A stretch of 44,334 bases of DNA from Candidatus Nomurabacteria bacterium RIFCSPLOWO2_12_FULL_44_11 (GTDB lineage: Bacteria > Patescibacteriota > Minisyncoccia > Phycocordibacterales > UBA9973): positions 1 to 44,334 of the forward strand of contig MFVU01000002.1 of the NCBI GenBank assembly GCA_001787125.1. Direction: 5' to 3'. Positions within the stretch are counted from its first letter, which is position 1. Each line of letters starts with the position of its first letter. This document shows, piece by piece, positions 1,626 to 42,561 of this stretch. Position numbers and translations under genes: made by a program. The notes beneath the pieces are model-generated. The model was not told where the DNA came from, made no database searches, and saw nothing but the letters and a program-made list of their open reading frames with translations.

Positions 1626-3524
1626 TTATTTTATCATTTCCAATGCCGCTTTGCCAATATCTTTCCTAAACTGCATGCCTTCAAAGGAAATTTTTTGGAT
1701 GGCTTGGTAGGCCTTATCGAGGGCTTCTTGCAAATTATTTCCGACAGTTGAAACGCCCAGCACTCGCCCACCGTTAGTGGCAAGTTCGCCTTTATTATCA
1801 ATTTTTGTTCCTGCATGAAATATTACAATGTCCGGATCACTTTCCGCTTCCTCAATCCCCATTATTTTTTTGCCCTTCTCGTAATTGCTGGGATAGCCCC
1901 CGGAAGCCAAGGCGATATTGCAGGCAAATCCTCCCTGCCACTCAATTTTCTGGTCCTCAAGTGTGCCGTCAATGCACGCGTCAATAGCATCCAGCAAATC
2001 ATTTTCCATGAGTCGCATATATGTTTGTGCCTCCGGGTCACCGAAGCGGGTATTAAACTCAAAAACTTTTGGGCCTTCCGCGGTCAGCATTATGCCGGGG
2101 TAGAGACACCCGACAAATTCTCTTCCCTCGGATCTCATACCTTTTATAGTCGGCGCGATTATTTCTCGTTCAATTTTAGCCATCAGTGCATCATCTACGA
2201 ACGGCAACGGCGCAATTACCCCCATGCCGCCAGTATTCGGCCCGACATTGCCATCAAAAATTCTTTTATGGTCTTGCGAAGCTGGAAAAATTTTATAATT
2301 TTTACCGTCGGAAAGCGCATGAATAGAAATTTCTATGCCTTCTAGGAATTCTTCAATCACAACCTCATTACCCGAAGCGCCAAAAATTTTATCTATCATA
2401 ATTTTCCGCAATGCTTCTGTCGCTTCCTCTTTGGTCTGCGCTATCGTTACACCCTTACCAAGCGCAAGGCCGCTTGCCTTAACAACTATTGGGAATTTCC
2501 CTTTTTCTATGTAATTCCTTGCTTTCTCAAAATTATTAAAAACTGCATGATGCGCGGTAGGAATATTGTGCCTCTTCATAAAGTCCTTGGCGTAGGCCTT
2601 GGACCATTCCAGCTCCGCGGCGGCCTTGGTCGGGCCCCAGACGCGCAATCCCGCCAGAGTAAATGCATCGACAACGCCCGAGGCAAGCGGCTCATCAGAT
2701 ACAACCAGAGTAAGGTCAATGTGTTCTTTCGTTGCGAATTCTAAAAGCTCTGGTATGTCAGTTTCCCTAATGTCTAAATTAGTGCCGATTTGCGACGTTC
2801 CGGCATTACCTCGCGCGAAAAATAGTTTCCCTGCCCGTGGCGACTGTGCAATTTTCCACCCTAGCGCATGCTCTCTGCCTCCCCCAGCACCCACCATTAA
2901 AATTTTTTTATACCTCACCGGACCTTCGGCCACCCTCTCCTTGTCAAGGAGAGGGGCTGGGGGTGAGGTTAATTTACTTAAAACTTCCACATATAGTGAA
3001 TTTTCTCTTTTCTTTAATCGTGAGTATAGGGATTCGACGTTGTCGTATTCATCAATCTTCTCAAAAGTTCGTCCGAGCACCGGTCCGAAATCAAAGTCCA
3101 GCGTTAAAAAATGGATAGTGGAACCTGCGTAAGTCGCCTTTTGATCGAGGAAATTCTGGATGGCCTTATCGCCATACATTCCTTTGTTCCAAAGCGCAGG
3201 CGTGTTGTCAGGATTCTTCACCGTGTCATTTATCGTGTCCGGAATCAAGCCCGGGTGGAGATTTAGTATTTTGCCGGGGTAATCGGCAACTATTTCGTCC
3301 GGGATAATTTTTTTCCAGCCAGCCAGGCATATGTAGTCCGGCGATGCTTTTTTTAATACTGGGACAGCATCTTCATTGTCGGAAATTACTGTAGAAATTT
3401 CGGCGTTAATTTTACCGTCATTTATCGCATTTTGTATTGCCTGCAAGTTGGTATGATTGCCCCCCTCGTGGATCATCAGCACTAATTTTATTTTATTACT
3501 GATTTTATTTATTGGGTACGTCAT
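1626..3524 (-). CDS. purN-purD: bifunctional GAR formyltransferase (PurN-like, N-terminal) / GAR synthetase (PurD, C-terminal) fusion
   Basis: 632 aa. The N-terminal ~190 aa has NLHPGLIPD ... STIHFLTLDFDFGPV, the Asn/His/Asp context of PurN. The C-terminal ~425 aa has KILMVGAGGGREHALGWK, GPNTGGMG and EFNTRFGDPE (ATP-grasp PurD). A Pro/Ala-rich linker joins them. Confidence 0.88.
   Translation of the reverse strand: MTYPINKISNKIKLVLMIHEGGNHTNLQAIQNAINDGKINAEISTVISDNEDAVPVLKKASPDYICLAGWKKIIPDEIVADYPGKILNLHPGLIPDTINDTVKNPDNTPALWNKGMYGDKAIQNFLDQKATYAGSTIHFLTLDFDFGPVLGRTFEKIDEYDNVESLYSRLKKRENSLYVEVLSKLTSPPAPLLDKERVAEGPVRYKKILMVGAGGGREHALGWKIAQSPRAGKLFFARGNAGTSQIGTNLDIRETDIPELLEFATKEHIDLTLVVSDEPLASGVVDAFTLAGLRVWGPTKAAAELEWSKAYAKDFMKRHNIPTAHHAVFNNFEKARNYIEKGKFPIVVKASGLALGKGVTIAQTKEEATEALRKIMIDKIFGASGNEVVIEEFLEGIEISIHALSDGKNYKIFPASQDHKRIFDGNVGPNTGGMGVIAPLPFVDDALMAKIEREIIAPTIKGMRSEGREFVGCLYPGIMLTAEGPKVFEFNTRFGDPEAQTYMRLMENDLLDAIDACIDGTLEDQKIEWQGGFACNIALASGGYPSNYEKGKKIMGIEEAESDPDIVIFHAGTKIDNKGELATNGGRVLGVSTVGNNLQEALDKAYQAIQKISFEGMQFRKDIGKAALEMIK
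2913..2968. repeat. 56-nt imperfect GC-rich palindrome encoding the PurN-PurD interdomain linker
   Basis: Outer arms cctcacc (2913-2919) and ggtgagg (2962-2968). Inner 11-bp arms ccctctccttg (2933-2943) and caaggagaggg (2945-2955). Translates in frame as SPPAPLLDKERVAEGPVR. Confidence 0.8.
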
Positions 3525-10324: not shown

Positions 10325-11710
10325 TTATTTCCAATACCTCTCTACTACATGATGCTCTTCGGGGCCGGTACCTACGTAGATAATTTTTCTGCCAAGAGTT
10401 TTTTCCAGGAATTTTATATAACTTAGGGCTTGAGGCGGCAGTTTACTGCCATAATCAAACAATCTTCCCTTCCAGACCGGAAAGGTTTTATAAATTGGCT
10501 TAATTTTTACCCGAGAAAGGTCGAAGGGAACACGATCTGTTTTTTTGCCATTGATTGTATAATGCGTGCAAATTTTTACTTTTTTAAAACCAGAAAGCAC
10601 ATCAAGTTTCGTCAGAATCAGCTTGGACGCATTGTTCATGTTTATCGCATATTTGAGCAAGGGTATGTCGACCCAGCCAGTTCGGCGCAGACGTCCGGTA
10701 GTTGCACCAATCTCGTTGCCAAGTTTTCGGAGGGCAATCCCTTGCTCGAATTCATCGCGGCTATTCGGATTAGGATTGGAAAATTTTTCTTTTTCGTCTG
10801 GAACTTTTTTATCTCGACACCATACCCTGGAGCGAATACCACCCAGTTCCGTCGGAAAAGGCCCTTCACCCACCTTGGTAGCGTAGGCCTTTAAAATCCC
10901 GATAGCTTCCCCTACCCAATGCGGAGAAATACCGAGTCCGGTGGCAACACCGCCGGCAATGGTATGTGAGGAAGTAACAAACGGGTAGTGACCGAAACGA
11001 ACATCCAAAAGTGCGCCTTGCGCACCCTCTGCGATAACTTTTTCCCCTGCATTTAGAGCCCTTTCAACTATTTCGCTTGAATCGGCCACTTGGAGCGATT
11101 GAATGAATTTAATGCCTGCCCAAAATTTTTTTTCGCTCCTGCTTAATTCATTACCTTTCCATTTATATTTAAATACTTTCTCCAATGTTTCTTTATGCTC
11201 TTTTTTTAAGGCCGCGTATTTTTTCTTGAAGTCCGGGTTGTAAATATCTCCTACCCGGAGAGCTCTTCGTAGGACAAGATCGGTATAGGACGGCGAAATC
11301 CCTTTACCAGTTGAGCCGATCCTTCTTTGGCCTTTAGTATGTTCGGAGACCGAATCAAGCAGGATGTGCGTTGGCAAAGTAAGCACAGCATGAGGAGAAA
11401 TAGTCATTCGGTGAAGAAATTTCACTTTTTTTGGAATCGTTGAGGCCTCCTCGCGCAAGGCGCCAGGGTTTACTACCATACCGGCACCTAGATGAATTTG
11501 CGCGCGCCCGAAAACTCCAGAAGGTATCAGATGAAATACATAACATTTTCCATCATGCCAAATAGTATGCCCAGCGTTATTCCCACCTTGAAAACGAACA
11601 ATTAGGTCCTGCGAAGAGAGACCAGAGGCAATCCTCGCAACCCCTTTTCCTTTGCCTTCGTCTCCCCACTGCAGACCAATTATAGGAATTATTTTTGATT
11701 TTTTACTCAT
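10325..11710 (-). CDS. purA: adenylosuccinate synthetase
   Basis: GLQWGDEGKGKG P-loop, GGNNAGHT, GATTGRLRRTGW. Start set at ATG 11710 ([12 protein letters not shown]), overlapping the guaB stop by 8 nt. The track extension to 11839 lies inside guaB. Confidence 0.92.
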   Translation of the reverse strand: MSKKSKIIPIIGLQWGDEGKGKGVARIASGLSSQDLIVRFQGGNNAGHTIWHDGKCYVFHLIPSGVFGRAQIHLGAGMVVNPGALREEASTIPKKVKFLHRMTISPHAVLTLPTHILLDSVSEHTKGQRRIGSTGKGISPSYTDLVLRRALRVGDIYNPDFKKKYAALKKEHKETLEKVFKYKWKGNELSRSEKKFWAGIKFIQSLQVADSSEIVERALNAGEKVIAEGAQGALLDVRFGHYPFVTSSHTIAGGVATGLGISPHWVGEAIGILKAYATKVGEGPFPTELGGIRSRVWCRDKKVPDEKEKFSNPNPNSRDEFEQGIALRKLGNEIGATTGRLRRTGWVDIPLLKYAINMNNASKLILTKLDVLSGFKKVKICTHYTINGKKTDRVPFDLSRVKIKPIYKTFPVWKGRLFDYGSKLPPQALSYIKFLEKTLGRKIIYVGTGPEEHHVVERYWK

Positions 11711-13241
11711 CACTTGCCTTGGTGTAATTAGGAGTTGGACTGACCATGAAAATATCATGGATATGGCTCTCACGCAGTCCTGCGGACGTAATGGAGTAGT
11801 AAGAAGCACTGCGCAGTTCGGAGATATTTTTTGCGCCAAGATATCCCATTCCCGCGCGCAGGCCGCCGATGTATTGATGAATCACTTCGGCTACTCCACC
11901 TTTATATGGCACATGAGCGGAAACTCCTTCGGGAACAAGCTTGATAGGATCATACTGGTCATCTTGAAAATATCGATCTCGCGACCCTCTTTGCATGGCG
12001 TCCACGGAACCCATGCCTCTATATTTTTTAAATTTTTGGTCGTTGCTTACAATCACATCCCCAGGCGCCTCATCTGTTCCAGCAAAAGTGCTACCGGTCA
12101 TAATTGTTTCTGCTCCGAAAACTAAGGCCTTGACCACATCTCCGCTGTACTTGATACCGCCGTCGGCAATCACCGGAATACTAAGCGGGCCGCATACTTT
12201 ATACACTGCTAAAATAGCAGATAATTGAGGAGCACCGACACCGGCTACGATACGGGTGGTGCAGATTGAACCCGGACCTATTCCCACTTTGACGGCATTG
12301 GCTCCGGCCCTAATAAGAGCTAGGGCTGCCTCACCGGTGGCGATATTTCCGGCAATGATATCGAGATTGGGGTACTTCGCACGGACATTCTTCACAACGT
12401 CTAGAACACCTTTGGAATGCCCATGCGCTGTGTCTACGCAAATTACATCTACACCGCTCTGCACCAACGCTTGGACTCGTTCCATGGCGTCTTTGCCAGT
12501 GCCAACCGCCGCGCCGACTCGAAGATGTCCCTCGTTGTCCTTGGTAGCATTCGGATATTCTCTGGATTTCACCATGTCACGATGCGTAATAAGACCGACT
12601 AGTTTGTTATTTTTGTCAATGAGGGGCAATTTTTCAATCCCGTGCTTCCTAAACAAATCATTCGCCTCAGCCAAAGTCGTGTTCGGTGTCCCGGTAATTA
12701 ATTTTGTAGTCATTACTTTTTTAATAGAAACATTTTCGCTCTTCTCGATGGTTTCAAAGCGTAAGTCGCGATTGGTAACGATACCCATAAGCGTTCTTTT
12801 TGAGTCGATGATCGGCACACCGCTGATGTTATGCTTTTTTTGGATGCGGAGAGCATCACCTACCGTGGCGGTGTCCGGAAGCGTAATCGGATCGATAATC
12901 TTCCCCGATTCAAAGCGTTTGACGGCCAGAACCTGATTTACTTGTTCGGTTATTGATAGGTTTTTGTGAATAATGCCGATACCGCCTTGCTGAGCCATGG
13001 CGATGGCCATGCGGTTCTCCGTCACCGTGTCCATAGCGGCGGAAATGAAAGGAATATATAAAGTGATATTTTTAGTCAGGCGAGTTTTGATAATCACATC
13101 TTTCGGCAGAACCTCGCTATAGCCGGGCACCAACAAAACATCATCGAATGTAAGCCCAGCCCCCAATATCTTTGGCAGAGATACCCGCCCGCCTGAACGA
13201 GCGTTCGGGCGGGCCTTTTGTTTGGAATTCTTGATAGGCAT
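11703..13241 (-). CDS. guaB: IMP dehydrogenase
   Basis: [16 protein letters not shown], a tandem CBS insert, catalytic [11 protein letters not shown], and [12 protein letters not shown]. The N-terminal 27 aa include a palindromic repeat. An alternative TTG start nearer GLTFDD cannot be excluded. Confidence 0.92.
13183..13215. repeat. GC-rich palindromic repeat, copy 1 (guaB 5' end)
   Basis: acccgcccgcctgaacgagcgttcgggcgggcc forms a 12-bp stem (one T-G pair) around a 2-nt loop. About 26 of 33 positions match the copy at 25041-25073. Confidence 0.8.
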
Positions 13242-23208: not shown

Positions 23209-25446
23209 ATGAAGTTATTAATTGTTGAGTCACCATCTAAAGCAAAGACAATTGAAAAATATTTAGAGGGCACTTACACTGTACGCGCTTCCATCGGTCA
23301 CATCCGCGACCTGCCGAAATCAAATAAAAAAGCGATAGACATTGAAGCAGGTTTTGTTCCTTTTTACGAAATTTCCAAAGGCAAGGAAAAAGTCGTGCAC
23401 GAACTTCAGGGTTTGGCTGAAAGGGCGGATGAGATAATTCTAGCGACCGACCCCGACCGTGAAGGTGAAGCTATTGCTTGGCATGTGAAAGAAATTTTAG
23501 ACAACGTCAAGGCACCGATTAAACGAGTAAGATTTTATGAAATTACAGAGGAAGCAGTAAAAGAAGCTATTCAGAATCCAGAAGAAATTAATAAAAAATT
23601 AGTAAAAGCCCAGGAAGCCCGTCGAGTGCTAGACCGTTTGGTTGGCTACGACCTCTCCGGCCTGATATGGAAAAAGGTGCGTTATGGACTCTCGGCTGGC
23701 AGGGTGCAATCGCCGGCGCTTCGCATAATTATGGAGCGCGAGCGCGAAATCCGCGCATTCGTGCCTGAAAAATTTTGGAAAATACTAGGACTATTCGCGA
23801 CTCAAAGAAACCAACACATTACTCTCACGTGTTCTGAAGAGCCGAGAGATGAAAAGCTGGTAGAGAAAATTTTAGATGTTGGCAAGTCGGGGACATGGAT
23901 TATTAAAGATGTTAAGGAGTCCGAGCAGAAACGAACACCACGTGCACCGTTCACCACTTCAACGTTACAACAGACAGCAAGCTCGCGTCTGGGCTATTCC
24001 CCATCCCGCACTATGCAAATAGCTCAGAAGCTCTACGAAGCCGGACACATTACCTATATGAGAACAGACAGCACTACGCTATCAAGCACCGCCCAGGGGC
24101 AAATTTTGGGATTCATAGAAAAAGGATACGGAAAAGAGTATGTGCAAAGTAGAGTTTACAAAACTAAATCCAAGAATGCTCAAGAAGCGCACGAGGCAAT
24201 TCGCCCGACGCATATAAATAAATTGCACAGTGGACACGATGACTATGATCGCCTTTATCGATTAATTTGGGAGCGCGCCGTTGCATCCCAGATGGCTGAT
24301 GCAAAATTATTGAAAACGAAAGTTACTGCAGAAATTGAAGGACGCTCCGACTTACCGGACTTCAGCGCAATCGGCTCACGTTTGCTTTTCCCCGGCTGGC
24401 TTGCTGTAGATCAGGGCGCGCGTGGTGAAGATGTAGAATTACCAGAATGTAAAAAGGGTGAACATTTAAAATTGATCGAACTTTCCAGTGAAGAAAAATT
24501 CACCGAGCCGCCCGGCAGATATAGTGAAGCAGGATTGATTAAGGAACTAGAGAGCCGAGGCATCGGCCGGCCTTCCACTTATGCATCCATAATGCGCACT
24601 CTGGAAGATCGCGAATATGTACGCAAAGATGGCAAAACGCTTTTTCCGACTGACACAGGCGAGGTAGTGTCGGACTTTCTGGAGAAACATTTTGCAAATT
24701 ATATTTCGGATACCTTTACTGCCGAAATGGAAGATGAACTAGACGAAATTTCCCGCGGCGAGCGTGAATATGAGAAAACATTGAAGGACTTTTATATTCC
24801 TTTTGCGAAAGACGTGAAGGCAAAAGATAAATTAGAAAAAGCAACAAATTTGGGTGACGCGCCGGAAAGTATCAAATGCCCCAAATGTGGCAGTGCTATG
24901 ATCATCAAACTCGCCCGCTCCGGAAAATTTTATTCTTGCTCCAAGTACCCGGACTGCGACGGCGCCTTGATGCTCGATGGTACCGAGCTTCAGGGGCCAA
25001 AAGAAACGGGTGAAATGTGCCCTTTATGTGGGGAAAAGAAACCCGCCGGACCGAACGGTCGTTCGGGCGGGGGAAAATCTGGAGGGGGAAAGCTGGTCGT
25101 GAAGGAGAGGCGTGACGGTTCAGGAACTTTTATTGCTTGTTCTAGGTATCCAAAATGTAAATTTATAAAAAGTGATGAAGCGGAAGAAGCCAAAAAAAGA
25201 ACTGGCATTGTGTGTCCGGTCTGTAAAACCGGAGATATTACTGAACGTAAAGGACGCTTTGGTATTTTCTATTCTTGTTCTAATTATCCAACCTGTAAAT
25301 TCGCAATCAAAGCCAAGCCAACCGGAAATATCTGCAAAGAATGCGGCTCTTTAATGATGGATGGGACTAAAACTATTCCTGAACGTTGCAGTAAAAAAGA
25401 TTGCCTCAACTTCCGTCCGGACAAAATTAAGAAAATTGAGAGTTAG
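23209..25446 (+). CDS. topA: DNA topoisomerase I
   Basis: Toprim LLIVESPSKAKTIEKYL and ATDPDREGEAIAWH, active-site Tyr context GHITYMRTDST, and C-terminal repeated CxxC...CxxC zinc ribbons. Confidence 0.95.
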   Translation: MKLLIVESPSKAKTIEKYLEGTYTVRASIGHIRDLPKSNKKAIDIEAGFVPFYEISKGKEKVVHELQGLAERADEIILATDPDREGEAIAWHVKEILDNVKAPIKRVRFYEITEEAVKEAIQNPEEINKKLVKAQEARRVLDRLVGYDLSGLIWKKVRYGLSAGRVQSPALRIIMEREREIRAFVPEKFWKILGLFATQRNQHITLTCSEEPRDEKLVEKILDVGKSGTWIIKDVKESEQKRTPRAPFTTSTLQQTASSRLGYSPSRTMQIAQKLYEAGHITYMRTDSTTLSSTAQGQILGFIEKGYGKEYVQSRVYKTKSKNAQEAHEAIRPTHINKLHSGHDDYDRLYRLIWERAVASQMADAKLLKTKVTAEIEGRSDLPDFSAIGSRLLFPGWLAVDQGARGEDVELPECKKGEHLKLIELSSEEKFTEPPGRYSEAGLIKELESRGIGRPSTYASIMRTLEDREYVRKDGKTLFPTDTGEVVSDFLEKHFANYISDTFTAEMEDELDEISRGEREYEKTLKDFYIPFAKDVKAKDKLEKATNLGDAPESIKCPKCGSAMIIKLARSGKFYSCSKYPDCDGALMLDGTELQGPKETGEMCPLCGEKKPAGPNGRSGGGKSGGGKLVVKERRDGSGTFIACSRYPKCKFIKSDEAEEAKKRTGIVCPVCKTGDITERKGRFGIFYSCSNYPTCKFAIKAKPTGNICKECGSLMMDGTKTIPERCSKKDCLNFRPDKIKKIES
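25041..25073. repeat. GC-rich palindromic repeat, copy 2 (in frame inside topA)
   Basis: acccgccggaccgaacggtcgttcgggcggggg with core arms ccgaacg/cgttcgg. Translates as KPAGPNGRSGGGK between two zinc-ribbon modules. About 26 of 33 positions match 13183-13215. Confidence 0.8.
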
Positions 25447-27959: not shown

Positions 27960-28063
27960 CAAAATTTTAGTAAAGTATGTGGATTGCCCCGATCGTCTGC
28001 TCGCCATGCTCGCATCGACGATTCCCAAAAAGGATTGGGGTAAAAACAAAGCAGTTTGTTTTT

Positions 28064-28148
28064 GCCGGAGTGGCGGAATTGGTAGACGCACACGACTCAA
28101 AATCGTGCGAGGCAACTCATGAGAGTTCGATTCTCTCCTCCGGCACCA
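28064..28148 (+). tRNA. tRNA-Leu (anticodon CAA), type II with long variable arm, CCA encoded
   Basis: Acceptor GCCGGAG/CTCCGGC, anticodon stem CACGA/TCGTG with loop CTCAAAA, 13-nt variable arm, T arm GAGAG-TTCGATT-CTCTC, then A-CCA. Confidence 0.92.
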
Positions 28149-28159
28149 AGAGAATAATT

Positions 28160-29485
28160 GTGAAAAACAAAATATTAGAAAAAAAATCGATAGATTTTGA
28201 GATAGTTGGCGGAAAAAAACTCTCCGGCACTATTCGAACGGGCTACTCAAAGAACGGCTCTGTCGGCCTGTTGTGTGCATCGCTCCTTAATCGAGGCACA
28301 ACAATACTTCATGGCATCGCCAGGATTGAGGAAGTTTATAGAATTATTGAGATCATGGAAAGTTTAGGGGTAAAGGTTTCCTGGGTTGGCAATAATTCAG
28401 TAAAAATCCACCCTCCGAAAGAATTTAATGTCAAGAAACTTAATCGCGAGTCGGCGGAAAAAACACGTTCAATACTTATGTTTATCGGCCCCTTGACGCA
28501 CTATCTCCCATCCTTTTATATTCCACATGCTGAAGGATGCCATTTGGGCAAACGCACTATCGCCGCTCATCGGTATGCCTTGGAAGAGCTCGGAATCAAA
28601 GTTGCCGTAACTGATGATAGATATGAAATTAAATCTAAAAAATTCACTCCAGCAAATATAATAATGTATGAAGCTGGAGACACGCCTATCGAGAATGTGC
28701 TCACTGCTGCAGCTTTAATCCCGGGTAAAACAACCGTGAAGTTCACGAGTTCCAATTATCAAGTTCAAGAAATATGTTTTTTCCTCGAAAAGTGTGGTGT
28801 AAACATTGGGGGAATAGGAACTTCAACACTCATCGTCCACGGGATAAAAAATATAAATAAAAAAATCGAATACTATAATAGCGAAGACCCGATAGAATCC
28901 ATGACTTTCATCGCGGCTGCGATAGCTACTGACTCTACCTTAACGGTAACTCGCTGCCCGATAGATTTTCTTGATTTGGAATTATATAAACTTAAAAAAA
29001 TGGGGCTTCAGTTCAGGGTTTCAAAAGAATATAAAGCAGATAACAAGCGAACCGTTCTAATTGATATTACTATTTTCCCTTCCAAGTTTAAAGCGCTAGA
29101 TGATAAGATCCACGCTAATCCATATCCGGGAATAAATATGGACAATTTGCCATACTTCGTTATCCCTGCAATTAAGGCCAAAGGTCAAACGCTAATTCAC
29201 GATTGGACTTATGAGAATAGAGCAATTTATCTCACCGAGCTCAACCGCATGGGCGCCAATATAACACTGGCCGATCCGCACCGACTGTATATTGAGGGTG
29301 GCACGAAACTTAAATCCGCCCAGGTAGTTTGCCCACCGGCCCTCCGTCCCTCTATGGTTATTCTTATCGCCATGTTGGGAGCAAGCGGTACCTCAATTCT
29401 CCGCAACATCTACATGATAAACCGCGGTTATGAGGATATCGTAAAGCGCCTTAATTCTATTGGCGCTGATATAAAAATTATTTAA
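28160..29485 (+). CDS. murA: UDP-N-acetylglucosamine 1-carboxyvinyltransferase (EPSP-synthase fold)
   Basis: KLSGTIRTGYSKNGSVGLLCASLL and active-site loop HAEGCHLGKRTIAAH (compare MurA GGCxIGxRPxDLH). Start assigned to GTG 28160, 11 nt after tRNA-Leu; the track ORF start at 27977 reads through the tRNA. Confidence 0.8.
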   Translation: MKNKILEKKSIDFEIVGGKKLSGTIRTGYSKNGSVGLLCASLLNRGTTILHGIARIEEVYRIIEIMESLGVKVSWVGNNSVKIHPPKEFNVKKLNRESAEKTRSILMFIGPLTHYLPSFYIPHAEGCHLGKRTIAAHRYALEELGIKVAVTDDRYEIKSKKFTPANIIMYEAGDTPIENVLTAAALIPGKTTVKFTSSNYQVQEICFFLEKCGVNIGGIGTSTLIVHGIKNINKKIEYYNSEDPIESMTFIAAAIATDSTLTVTRCPIDFLDLELYKLKKMGLQFRVSKEYKADNKRTVLIDITIFPSKFKALDDKIHANPYPGINMDNLPYFVIPAIKAKGQTLIHDWTYENRAIYLTELNRMGANITLADPHRLYIEGGTKLKSAQVVCPPALRPSMVILIAMLGASGTSILRNIYMINRGYEDIVKRLNSIGADIKII

Positions 29486-41896: not shown

Positions 41897-41928
41897 GGGG
41901 GTCAACGACGCGATGGCCGTTGACCCCC
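41897..41928 (-). terminator. 11-bp GC hairpin at the distal end of the GC-rich insert (possible terminator or element end)
   Basis: gggggtcaacg (41897-41907) pairs with cgttgaccccc (41918-41928) around a 10-nt loop. It lies 50 nt downstream of the island ORF stop. The minus-strand tail AACTTAATTGTTTAT is only weakly U-rich. Confidence 0.4.
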
Positions 41929-41978
41929 TTGTGCGCCAAGTTCGCTTCCCGCTTGGCACGGGATCGGCCACCTGCCGA

Positions 41979-42449
41979 TTAGGCCTGCCCGAGAGGCAGT
42001 TGCTTCTGAATCACGGGCGGCGCAATCTCGTCGGTTGGCTGCCCACCTGACGTCATGATCGTTGAATCGTCGTCCTTGGCCCGGGTTGCCCCTGACCAAT
42101 TGTTGATGGCGTCGAGGAGCTCCTCGACGCCGAGCACCTCGTGAACCCGCGCGAGCGGGTCCACGGGTTCACGCTTCAACCGCTGGCCGATGGTCGAGGT
42201 GACCATCAACCGAAACGGCGCTGCGAGCGCCTCCACGAGGACGTGTTCCACCCCCGCGGAGTGGAGTGCGCGGAGAACGTCGCCCGCCTCCTCCGTGCTG
42301 CCGTCCACGAAGACGGCAGCGAGCGCGAACTGGCCATCGAGCTCAAGTACGCTCACGGCGTGGCCGGGCCGTGCCGGAAACATAGCAACCGCCTCGTATG
42401 CGGCTGCCACCTGCTGTAGCTCGAGTGCTGCGTTTATACGGTATATCAT
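41979..42449 (-). CDS. hypothetical protein encoded in the GC-rich insert (156 aa)
   Basis: Start at ATG 42449 preceded by GAGGA (4-nt spacer). Strong G/C bias at third codon positions in this frame only. Begins MIYRINAALELQQVAAAYEAV. I recognise no family. Confidence 0.55.
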   Translation of the reverse strand: MIYRINAALELQQVAAAYEAVAMFPARPGHAVSVLELDGQFALAAVFVDGSTEEAGDVLRALHSAGVEHVLVEALAAPFRLMVTSTIGQRLKREPVDPLARVHEVLGVEELLDAINNWSGATRAKDDDSTIMTSGGQPTDEIAPPVIQKQLPLGQA

Positions 42450-42479
42450 TTGTTCCTCACAGGCCGGCTCTGCTACCGG

Positions 42480-42515
42480 CAAAACGAAACGGCTCGGGAC
42501 GCAGAACTCCCGAGC
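42480..42515 (-). terminator. intrinsic-terminator-like hairpin plus U-tract (atp operon terminator and/or leader attenuator)
   Basis: Minus strand reads GCUCGGGA-GUUCUGCG-UCCCGAGC followed by CGUUUCGUUUUG. It lies 72-107 nt downstream of the atpC stop and upstream of the island ORF. Confidence 0.5.
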
Positions 42516-42532
42516 GAACAAAACACTGTGCA

Positions 42533-42561
42533 TTTATAGCACATTTAGTATTGAAAGTCAA
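42533..42561 (-). promoter_or_regulatory. sigma70-type promoter TTGACT-17-(TGc)TATAAA pointing into the GC-rich insert
   Basis: -35 agtcaa at 42556-42561 and -10 tttata at 42533-42538 (plus-strand spelling), with a 17-nt spacer and an extended TGc. Located in the AT-rich spacer just after the atpC stop. Confidence 0.5.

Follow-up and report, generated by a model that had tools for sequence, protein, structure and literature searches.

A 44,334-nt stretch of Candidatus Nomurabacteria bacterium RIFCSPLOWO2_12_FULL_44_11 (contig MFVU01000002.1, positions 1 to 44,334; here called the window) contains two related 30-nt GC-rich palindromic sequences, one within topA and one within guaB, and these probably belong to a tiny selfish DNA element that is non-autonomous and translated as a linker. 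The element inserts as a discrete unit and is present at many chromosomal sites that are unrelated to one another, both in Patescibacteria and in certain other bacteria from similar samples. A sequence-only reading of the window had proposed a small mobile palindromic element, tolerated as an in-frame Gly/Pro/Arg/Ser linker and resembling the Rickettsia palindromic elements (RPEs), and this is supported by empty sites in related genomes and by at least 162 distinct insertion contexts elsewhere. The proposed mobility thus stands, but the element has spread far more widely than that reading assumed and crosses phyla. No published description of it was found in the literature, either by exact sequence or by topic.

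Two copies in topA and guaB

The two copies, the 33-mers within which they were noticed, and their host genes are located in the window as follows.

23209-25446, plus strand: topA, 745 aa, with Pfam Toprim, Topoisom_bac and three Zn_ribbon_Top1 matches
25041-25073, in topA on the plus strand: topA 33-mer, acccgccggaccgaacggtcgttcgggcggggg
25042-25071, plus strand: topA copy of the family-1 palindromic element, CCCGCCgGACCGAACGGTCGTTCGGGCGGG, one mismatch to the consensus
11703-13241, minus strand: guaB, 512 aa from the ATG at 13241, with Pfam IMPDH from residue 29
13182-13214, in guaB on the minus strand: guaB 33-mer, acccgcccgcctgaacgagcgttcgggcgggcc
13184-13213, plus strand: guaB copy of the family-1 element, CCCGCCCGcCtGAACGagCGTTCGGGCGGG, four mismatches to the consensus when read on the plus strand

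Both 33-mers are present as the sequence-only reading quoted them, 26 of their 33 positions are identical (our count), and the peptides it gave for the two copies are correct. Their shared pattern, GAACGNNCGTTCGGGCGGG, has exact matches in the window only at these two sites; at up to three mismatches 0.09 matches are expected in shuffled sequence, and the observed number was reached in 0 of 100 shuffles. The 30-nt core is 80% G+C (our count) in a window of 43.6% G+C, and the two copies are the sole pair related in sequence among the GC-rich hairpins of the window. Folding gives a hairpin for each: a strong one for the guaB copy, at −27.0 kcal/mol (z −3.5) on one strand and −24.5 kcal/mol (z −3.6) on the other, and a weaker one for the topA copy, at −19.5 kcal/mol (z −1.2) and −18.5 kcal/mol (z −2.4). 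An 8-mer at 66-73, mentioned in the sequence-only reading as too short to call, sits within GATTTCGTTCGGGATCC and is rejected for want of a GC clamp, and only two copies of the 30-mer are present in the 44 kb. The frame of the two copies relative to the element had been described as identical, but by the element's own asymmetry the topA copy is forward in frame 1 and the guaB copy is reverse in frame 3; the two peptide readings look alike because the element is palindromic.

The topA copy reads PAGPNGRSGG (33-mer peptide PAGPNGRSGGGK) and lies not between two zinc-ribbon modules, as first described, but inside one, in the loop between its CPLCG knuckle and the strand KLVVKERR. When the 120 TopA homologues closest to it (78-84% identity) are aligned, the insert is found only in the window protein and 119 of the 120 lack it, so the peptide is not conserved among TopA orthologues; most homologues read EKKG-KSGGGKL after the CPxCG knuckle, where the window protein reads EKK[PAGPNGRSGG]GKSGGGKL. 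The nearest relative, L254, has the empty site GAG AAG AAG-GGT AAA, and the window has GAA AAG AAA-CCCGCCGGACCGAACGGTCGTTCGGGCGGG-GGA AAA, with exactly 30 nt added and nothing duplicated. An AlphaFold2 model of TopA places residues 610-625 in a coil between two strands with a predicted local distance difference test score (pLDDT) below 50, and lends weak support to a loop location, the model being poor overall (mean pLDDT 59). The protein is 100% identical to P0001, which is named for three RIFCS Nomurabacteria metagenome-assembled genomes (MAGs) including RIFCSPLOWO2_02_FULL_44_12. No empty topA allele was found in the source population, where both cluster members are 745 aa. The single mismatch and the restriction to one lineage suggest that the topA copy is recent.

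The guaB copy is reverse-oriented on the minus (coding) strand and in frame 3 encodes (A)RPNARSGGR within a Lys-rich N-terminal tail. A short Lys-rich tail without the insert is present in 118 of 120 GuaB homologues (for example, MPNNNGKKKVSIPEMLG), and the window tail, MPIKNSKQK-[insert]-VSLPK, aligns with homologues such as MPNNNGKKKVSIPEML; at the nucleotide level L255 has the empty site AAA AAA-GTA TCA, and neither this nor the empty topA site shows a duplication. The insert is present in 3 of 121 proteins, namely the window protein and two homologues from a sister lineage (P0122/P0123, 77% identity; loci L001 and L042), and so is not a conserved part of GuaB. In the sister lineage it occupies the same place and reads TRPTGRSFGQ; there the copy lies at the same nucleotide position in the opposite orientation (window 13184-13213, L001 10029-10058) and also has four mismatches. 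The NCBI model of guaB (491 aa) starts at a CTG downstream of the insert, a gene-calling pitfall that deserves flagging, and other callers use the ATG at 13241 (512 aa, 24 contigs). The residues before the insert align with those of homologues and a promoter-like site lies just upstream of this ATG, at 13281-13253, and therefore the guaB insert is most likely translated. Its four mismatches and its occurrence in the sister lineage suggest that it is older than the topA copy, and a young copy in topA together with an older one in guaB fits continued activity followed by decay. Together with the reverse complement of the upstream Lys codons, the guaB copy receives a score as an intrinsic terminator, one that lies within the gene and on its antisense strand. 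A terminator reading for the element was rejected, since only the guaB copy scores, only in this antisense position, and the flanks of the family are unrelated.

The element beyond the window

The family-1 consensus, first set from a copy in the Dus gene of locus L004 that matches the topA copy at 29 of 30 positions, is CCCGCCCGACCGAACGGTCGTTCGGGCGGG. It is a 30-bp quasi-palindrome with 7- to 8-bp GC clamps, CCCGCCC(G) and (C)GGGCGGG, around a GACC-GAAC-GGTC-GTTC core that can form two alternative 4-bp hairpins. Its length is a multiple of three, CG dinucleotides are abundant, none of the six frames contains a stop codon, and every frame gives a peptide rich in Arg, Pro, Gly, Ser and Ala. Copies are near-invariant with sharp ends amid unrelated flanks, well beyond chance similarity among GC-rich Gly/Arg codon runs; the terminal CCCG...CGGG is retained in 78 to 81 of 81 copies, depending on the position. 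Appreciable variation is restricted to five positions (9, 11, 13, 18 and 28), and the most frequent variants either lie in one conformer's bulge or loop or create a G·T wobble pair. In about one-quarter of copies, a clamp pair is broken by G28A, with no compensating change. The variants form subfamilies common to different sites.

One genome per GTDB species was scanned with a degenerate 19-base pattern, giving 105 loci, of which 74 carry the element with unrelated flanks (our tally). Metagenomes, including Rifle-series and Hainich samples, add at least 119 loci, and the two scans combined yield at least 162 distinct contexts. By record title, the 74 carrier loci of the genome scan are distributed as follows.

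Patescibacteria: 53 loci
Bacteroidota: 8 loci
Planctomycetota: 4 loci
Ignavibacteria: 3 loci
Unclassified: 6 loci

The patescibacterial carriers include Nomura-, Paceibacter-, Kaiser-, Vogel-, Giovannoni-, Yanofsky-, Berkel- and Saccharibacteria, as well as Minisyncoccia. Mis-binning does not explain all copies outside Patescibacteria (also known as the candidate phyla radiation [CPR]), because several are on long contigs (226-681 kb) or in phylum-typical genes such as LptF/LptG. Loci near genes of the window are not strongly favored: 15 of 152 share window genes, at most about a 2-fold enrichment, and regional clustering is rejected. About 30 of the 105 genome loci are chance matches in high-GC genomes, which is what speaks for a last resort, that the family is a chance similarity of Gly/Arg codon runs, an ancestral sequence or an assembly artefact. 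That explanation has next to no credibility. Chance and ancestry are contradicted by the window shuffles and the TopA and GuaB alignments, and an artefact by an identical TopA protein on 22 contigs from NCBI, JGI, ENA and Logan assemblies and by the spread of carriers over many differently named MAG series and sample sets.

Palindromes of several other lengths have the termini CCYGCCYG...CRGGCRGG and form a superfamily with the 30-mer, with lengths of 18, 20, 26, 30, 36, 39 and 42 nt in the same DNA. There are about 220 instances in 1.97 Mb scanned, where fewer than one such pair is expected by chance (our estimate). The shorter palindromes located are the following.

L003 4171-4188, 4571-4588, 10651-10668 and 11851-11868: family 2, 18-nt palindrome CCTGCCTGCGCAGGCAGG, four identical copies in 22 kb
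L004 11911-11930: 20-nt variant of family 2, in the topA gene of L004
L256 1565-1580, L036 3988-4003, L209 406-421 and L243 2697-2712: family 3, 16-nt palindrome TCCGCCAGCTGGCGGA, read as PPAG

Two of the L003 copies are in topA, and the other two are in a tRNA-Gln/GIY-YIG region, one in the tRNA-Gln gene and one in its duplicated 5′ fragment, between the acceptor stem and the D arm; between them lie a GIY-YIG open reading frame (ORF), which has just one weak relative in the other loci, and an intact tRNA-Gln. In the TopA loop there is thus a family-1 element in the window, and family 2 takes that place in L003 and L004. Family 3, which may be separate from the CCYGCCYG superfamily, is found in LeuRS, in Dus and in an ORF that looks CarA-like by eye, and in LeuRS it occupies, in a different lineage, the same CxxC knuckle as family 1. 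Searches of the window and four carrier loci with Rfam 15 matched only tRNAs. The unrelated palindromes in the same TopA and LeuRS loops could be taken as a sign that inserts do not pass from site to site and that each arises on the spot, where template switching or fold-back repair acts at a fragile site; yeast is known to acquire fold-back insertions at breaks (PMC11724301). Such an origin is highly improbable, and for family 1 the sequences effectively refute it: the same 30-mer, unrelated to local sequence, is present at at least 162 sites with different flanks, and its variant subfamilies recur at different sites in a pattern beyond local templating.

Insertion occurs in either orientation and leaves no target-site duplication. 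Matching flanks of 4 nt or more are present in 0 of 70 copies, and shorter matches are near chance. Flank preferences are weak (at most 0.3 bits per position), with A at −3 in 60% and at +2 in 50%, T rare at −1 and A rare at +1; the 5′ flank is biased only toward A-W-R, no TA target was found among the flanks of the copies, and there is no consistent palindromic extension of the element into them. Copies can be nested, as in L252, L219 and L220, the first of which reads CCCGCCC-[inner copy]-GAACGAC..., and decayed secondary copies are found in the fetched loci. In Kaiserbacteria RIFCSPLOWO2_01_FULL_50_24 (L038 at ∼3380-3500, L067 and L127), three 30-mers lie in a conserved intergenic mosaic of ∼110 nt that combines the 30-mer with other hairpin modules and resembles clusters of the bacterial interspersed mosaic element (BIME) type. 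Three other accounts of the insertion sites were tried and rejected. Reconstructed empty sites are no richer in hairpin loops than controls 60-180 nt away (33% versus 31%), a half-site search for the ends of full-length transposons found only longer hairpin variants, and both scans give one match per locus with no regular spacing, unlike CRISPR-like arrays; in the apparent exception, L135, both strands match one overlapping site.

Reading frames, host genes and mechanism

Among the 162 listed contexts, 116 (72%) are in reading frames of at least 150 codons and 46 are non-coding. The six frames, with the peptide that each encodes and its number of copies among the listed contexts, are as follows.

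F1: PARPNGRSGG, 59 copies
F2: PPDRTVVRAG, 3 copies
F3: RPTERSFGR, 15 copies
R1: PARTTVRSGG, 12 copies
R2: PPERPFGRAG, 12 copies
R3: RPNDRSVGR, 15 copies

The skew is pronounced (chi-square of about 103 with 5 degrees of freedom, our arithmetic). F1, which reads PARP(N/D)GRSGG, is alone in lacking a bulky hydrophobic residue, and F2, the least used, contains two; every frame encodes two or three Arg residues. Variants also partition by frame: A13G, which changes Asn to Asp in F1, is present in 27 of 59 F1 copies versus 6 of 46 non-coding copies, and G28A, a Gly-to-Arg change in F1 and Pro-to-Leu in R2, is present in 4 of 59 F1 copies versus 8 of 12 R2 copies. C11T makes a TGA in frame 2, and variants creating TGA are never seen in that frame. 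About 80% of the F1 copies directly follow a Lys codon (AAA or AAG). The frame skew and the dependence of variants on frame therefore indicate, at the level of sequence, that inserts undergo translation and that selection on the resulting peptide then filters them. Removal from the mRNA is unlikely given the lengths in multiples of three, the frame bias and the avoidance of TGA variants in frame 2, and the wobble test gave no evidence of a structure specific to the mRNA strand, as G28A shows no significant difference between orientations (p = 0.22).

The coding contexts fall in 74 different host-gene clusters (BLAST clustering and Pfam), and the hosts are mainly large nucleic-acid enzymes and conserved essential genes, with copies distributed as follows.

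LeuRS, Dus and UvrD/PcrA: six copies each
GyrA: five copies
PolA: four copies
CarB, DEAD-box helicase, LepA and GH130: three copies each
CarA, RNase R, UvrA, PheT, TopA, SecA, IscS-type, RF1 and XerC-type recombinase: two copies each
Other hosts: IleRS (at least two loci), RecA, RecG, FtsK, HolB, UvrC, Tgt (by eye), a TrmA-like methyltransferase and PrmC

GyrA, UvrD, LeuRS and Dus each exceed the expectation from gene length by more than 5-fold (a rough estimate of our own that assumes ∼0.8 Mb of coding DNA), and in several genes the site of insertion varies from lineage to lineage. This host spectrum may arise because nucleic-acid enzymes tolerate Arg/Gly-rich loops, because insertion has hot spots, or for both reasons.

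The LeuRS insert splits a zinc knuckle, HC(D/E)K-CG (CxxC), in five lineages whose LeuRS proteins are 49-72% identical in the three of the five that were compared, and all five carriers have the A13G variant. At most 1 of the 120 closest LeuRS homologues of one carrier (72-80% identity) has the insert, which is nonetheless present at the same site in more distant LeuRS genes. As the TopA loop and the LeuRS knuckle each hold different palindrome families, these sites are re-used and the distribution among relatives is patchy. In carB, two loci from different classes (63% protein identity) have the element at the same nucleotide in opposite orientations (L036 2665-2694 and L120 221-250). This and the similar guaB pair suggest either in-place flipping of the asymmetric center or repeated hits at a preferred or uniquely tolerated site. 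A LeuRS gene with the knuckle insert (L047 2636-2713) also has a second, decayed related insert, DAGLPRTERSSGTG (...CCCCGTACCGAACGAAGTTCTGGTACTGGGG...), and one gene can therefore accumulate several elements.

The choice of hosts raises the question of whether the insert is useful, either as a flexible Arg/Gly-rich loop that helps nucleic-acid enzymes bind their substrates or as a functional hairpin in mRNA or DNA, such as a pause site, stability element, antisense terminator or protein-binding site. A role of this kind is improbable. It would accommodate the DNA and RNA enzymes among the hosts (TopA, GyrA, PolA, UvrA, UvrC, UvrD, RecA, RecG, FtsK, LeuRS, IleRS, Dus and RNase R), the Arg residues of every frame, the dominance of F1 with its preceding Lys codon, the high nucleotide identity at fourfold-degenerate sites among same-site copies, and the antisense terminator score of the guaB copy. 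It fits poorly with the patchy occurrence among close homologues of TopA, GuaB and LeuRS, and with the occurrence of copies in every frame, in either orientation and at non-coding sites. Decay is seen in older copies, among them those of L001 and of guaB in the window, the LeuRS insert interrupts a zinc knuckle, and the clamp pair broken by G28A goes uncompensated.

A second alternative concerns how copies reach their sites. Insertion itself could be rare, with inserts in conserved genes moving among lineages by DNA uptake and homologous recombination and no dedicated transposase; a palindromic loop-out in the heteroduplex would escape repair, and vertical descent with occasional precise loss would cover the rest. 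CPR bacteria are thought to depend on DNA uptake, dprA adjoins topA in the window, and the hosts are conserved core genes. The same variant also recurs at the same site in LeuRS (five carriers with A13G), PolA (L080/L102), IleRS (L050/L240 and L115/L166) and Dus site 1. We nevertheless consider this route unlikely. The flanks of the carriers differ at synonymous sites within 3-6 nt of the junction, so that no co-transferred tract is visible, homologous exchange is implausible between the diverged CarB carriers, and the 74 host-gene clusters, 46 non-coding contexts and nested copies need real insertion events.

Spread of a selfish element would instead involve transposition-like copying that depends on the hairpin and the conserved termini, recognized in trans. 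An in-gene insertion would add ten hydrophilic residues and keep the frame; selection would remove most insertions, leaving survivors where a large essential protein has a loop that tolerates them, in the frame with the lowest hydrophobicity and in many cases directly after a Lys codon, and old copies would decay by point mutation. The lack of duplications, the single hairpin, insertion in either orientation and nesting argue against DDE transposases, and candidates that would fit are single-strand- or structure-specific enzymes acting in trans, such as an HUH/RAYT-like nuclease, a serine transposase or a GIY-YIG nuclease.

Several observations weigh against mobility of this kind. No candidate mobilizing enzyme was found in the window (15 ORFs scanned) or beside the Kaiserbacteria mosaics, and no carriage vector was found: IMG/VR has no match to either family-1 pattern, INPHARED phages have chance partial matches only, and PLSDB plasmids have none. 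There are no more than four loci per species-representative genome by the strict pattern, which is unusual for repeats of the REP (repetitive extragenic palindromic) or MITE (miniature inverted-repeat transposable element) kind. Exact sites recur despite the weak target preference, and same-site copies in distant lineages share the same variant, which random re-insertion from a mixed pool explains poorly. The scan patterns fix 19-21 bases, so that intact copies are over-sampled and the apparent conservation is inflated.

A broader proposal is possible but doubtful, namely that the 30-mer is the commonest member of a superfamily of coding-competent micro-transposons of 16-42 bp with CCYGCCYG termini, moved by a putative hairpin-specific enzyme and exchanged, in groundwater and soil, by Patescibacteria with Bacteroidota, Ignavibacteria and Planctomycetota. 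Were this so, few mobile elements known to cross phyla would be as small; these micro-transposons would steadily supply the essential enzymes of ultra-small bacteria with loop insertions and might mark DNA exchange between episymbionts and their hosts. The selfish-element reading has implications of its own. CPR/Patescibacteria genomes are minimal and have few classical transposons. If the reading holds, they have been colonized by mobile DNA small enough to reside in essential genes and leave them intact, which would explain lineage-specific loop insertions in CPR core enzymes and provide a further case in which selfish DNA shapes the sequence of proteins, a new one. By its design the element seems fit to survive in any frame, with its length in multiples of three, lack of stops, and Arg/Pro/Gly coding throughout, and the 30-mer could be used as a sequence tag for recent DNA flow among uncultivated groundwater bacteria.

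Other window features and likeness to known systems

Three further features of the window were noted:

2933-2955: perfect palindrome, each arm 11 bp, CCCTCTCCTTGTCAAGGAGAGGG, in the linker that joins the halves of the ORF at 1626-3524 (minus strand)
41897-41928: GC-rich hairpin, followed by a 184-aa ORF at 41979-42533 (minus strand) without a Pfam match
28064-28145: tRNA gene inside the 5′ part of a mechanically called ORF at 27977-29485 (plus strand)

The ORF at 1626-3524 looks by eye like a PurN-PurD fusion (...SPPAPLLDKERVAEG...), and the palindrome in its linker could be another in-frame palindrome or a former intergenic hairpin. The kilobase around this hairpin and its 184-aa ORF (41897-42533) is 55% G+C, the ORF has four GC-rich palindromes, and the region looks compositionally foreign. 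The gene at 27977-29485 probably has its true start further downstream.

RPEs, reportedly the subject of "Selfish DNA in protein-coding genes of Rickettsia," are said to be in-frame palindromes of ∼100-150 bp found in Rickettsia only. By analogy, the element appears to work like an RPE without being a member of that family: both are palindromic repeats that lie in frame in unrelated ORFs, are apparently read through and look selfish, but the element is set apart by its length and hosts, being 30 bp, GC-rich in an AT-rich genome, present in few copies per genome and found in several phyla.

REP sequences are extragenic and high in copy number, have a GTAG or CGTC tag at one end, and are associated with REP-associated tyrosine transposases (RAYTs) (PMC3733652). 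The element resembles REPs and BIMEs as a 20- to 40-bp GC-rich imperfect palindrome that forms mosaics with other hairpins, as in the Kaiserbacteria copies, and its nesting and lack of target duplications fit single-strand hairpin transposition of the REP/RAYT kind. It differs in being 72% inside reading frames, in its few loci per representative genome and in its CCCG/CGGG ends, with neither GTAG nor CGTC seen in the flank profiles, and no RAYT gene was seen in the examined DNA (15 ORFs of the 44-kb window and the 8-kb loci). Elements associated with palindromes and derived from IS200/IS605 have a fixed tetra- or pentanucleotide 5′ target, which the 5′ flank of the element lacks.

MITEs have been reviewed (PMC10969869), and the element is like them in being non-autonomous, with conserved terminal inverted repeats (here CCYGCCYG), an interior that varies across the superfamily, and subfamilies. 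MITEs are usually 50-500 bp and make target-site duplications. The superfamily described here is only 18-42 bp, and the element makes no such duplication (0 of 70 at 4 nt or more). Closer in size are the very small dispersed repeats of filamentous cyanobacteria, reportedly described by Elhai and colleagues in 2008 in Genome Research; these are likewise mobile, ∼20-30 nt long, located inside genes and nested in one another, but they belong to another phylum, have another sequence and reach a much higher copy number per genome. We are aware of no account of these repeats that describes strong filtering by frame or identity across phyla.

The GC clusters of yeast mitochondrial DNA are GC-rich, palindromic and mobile (PMC8811140). 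Like the element, they reside in an AT-rich genome and are occasionally in frame in a gene; however, they are organellar, mostly intergenic and have no relation to bacteria. Some classes of these clusters make short target duplications. Inteins and other homing elements are similar in host range only, as they also occupy GyrA, PolA, RecA, UvrD-type helicases, aminoacyl-tRNA synthetases and further conserved enzymes that are essential, and are patchy at identical sites; the element has no splicing, endonuclease or protein fold, and its ten residues stay in the protein. The element is unusual for its extreme brevity, its six-frame coding design, its near-identity across phyla and its concentration in essential nucleic-acid enzymes of CPR bacteria.

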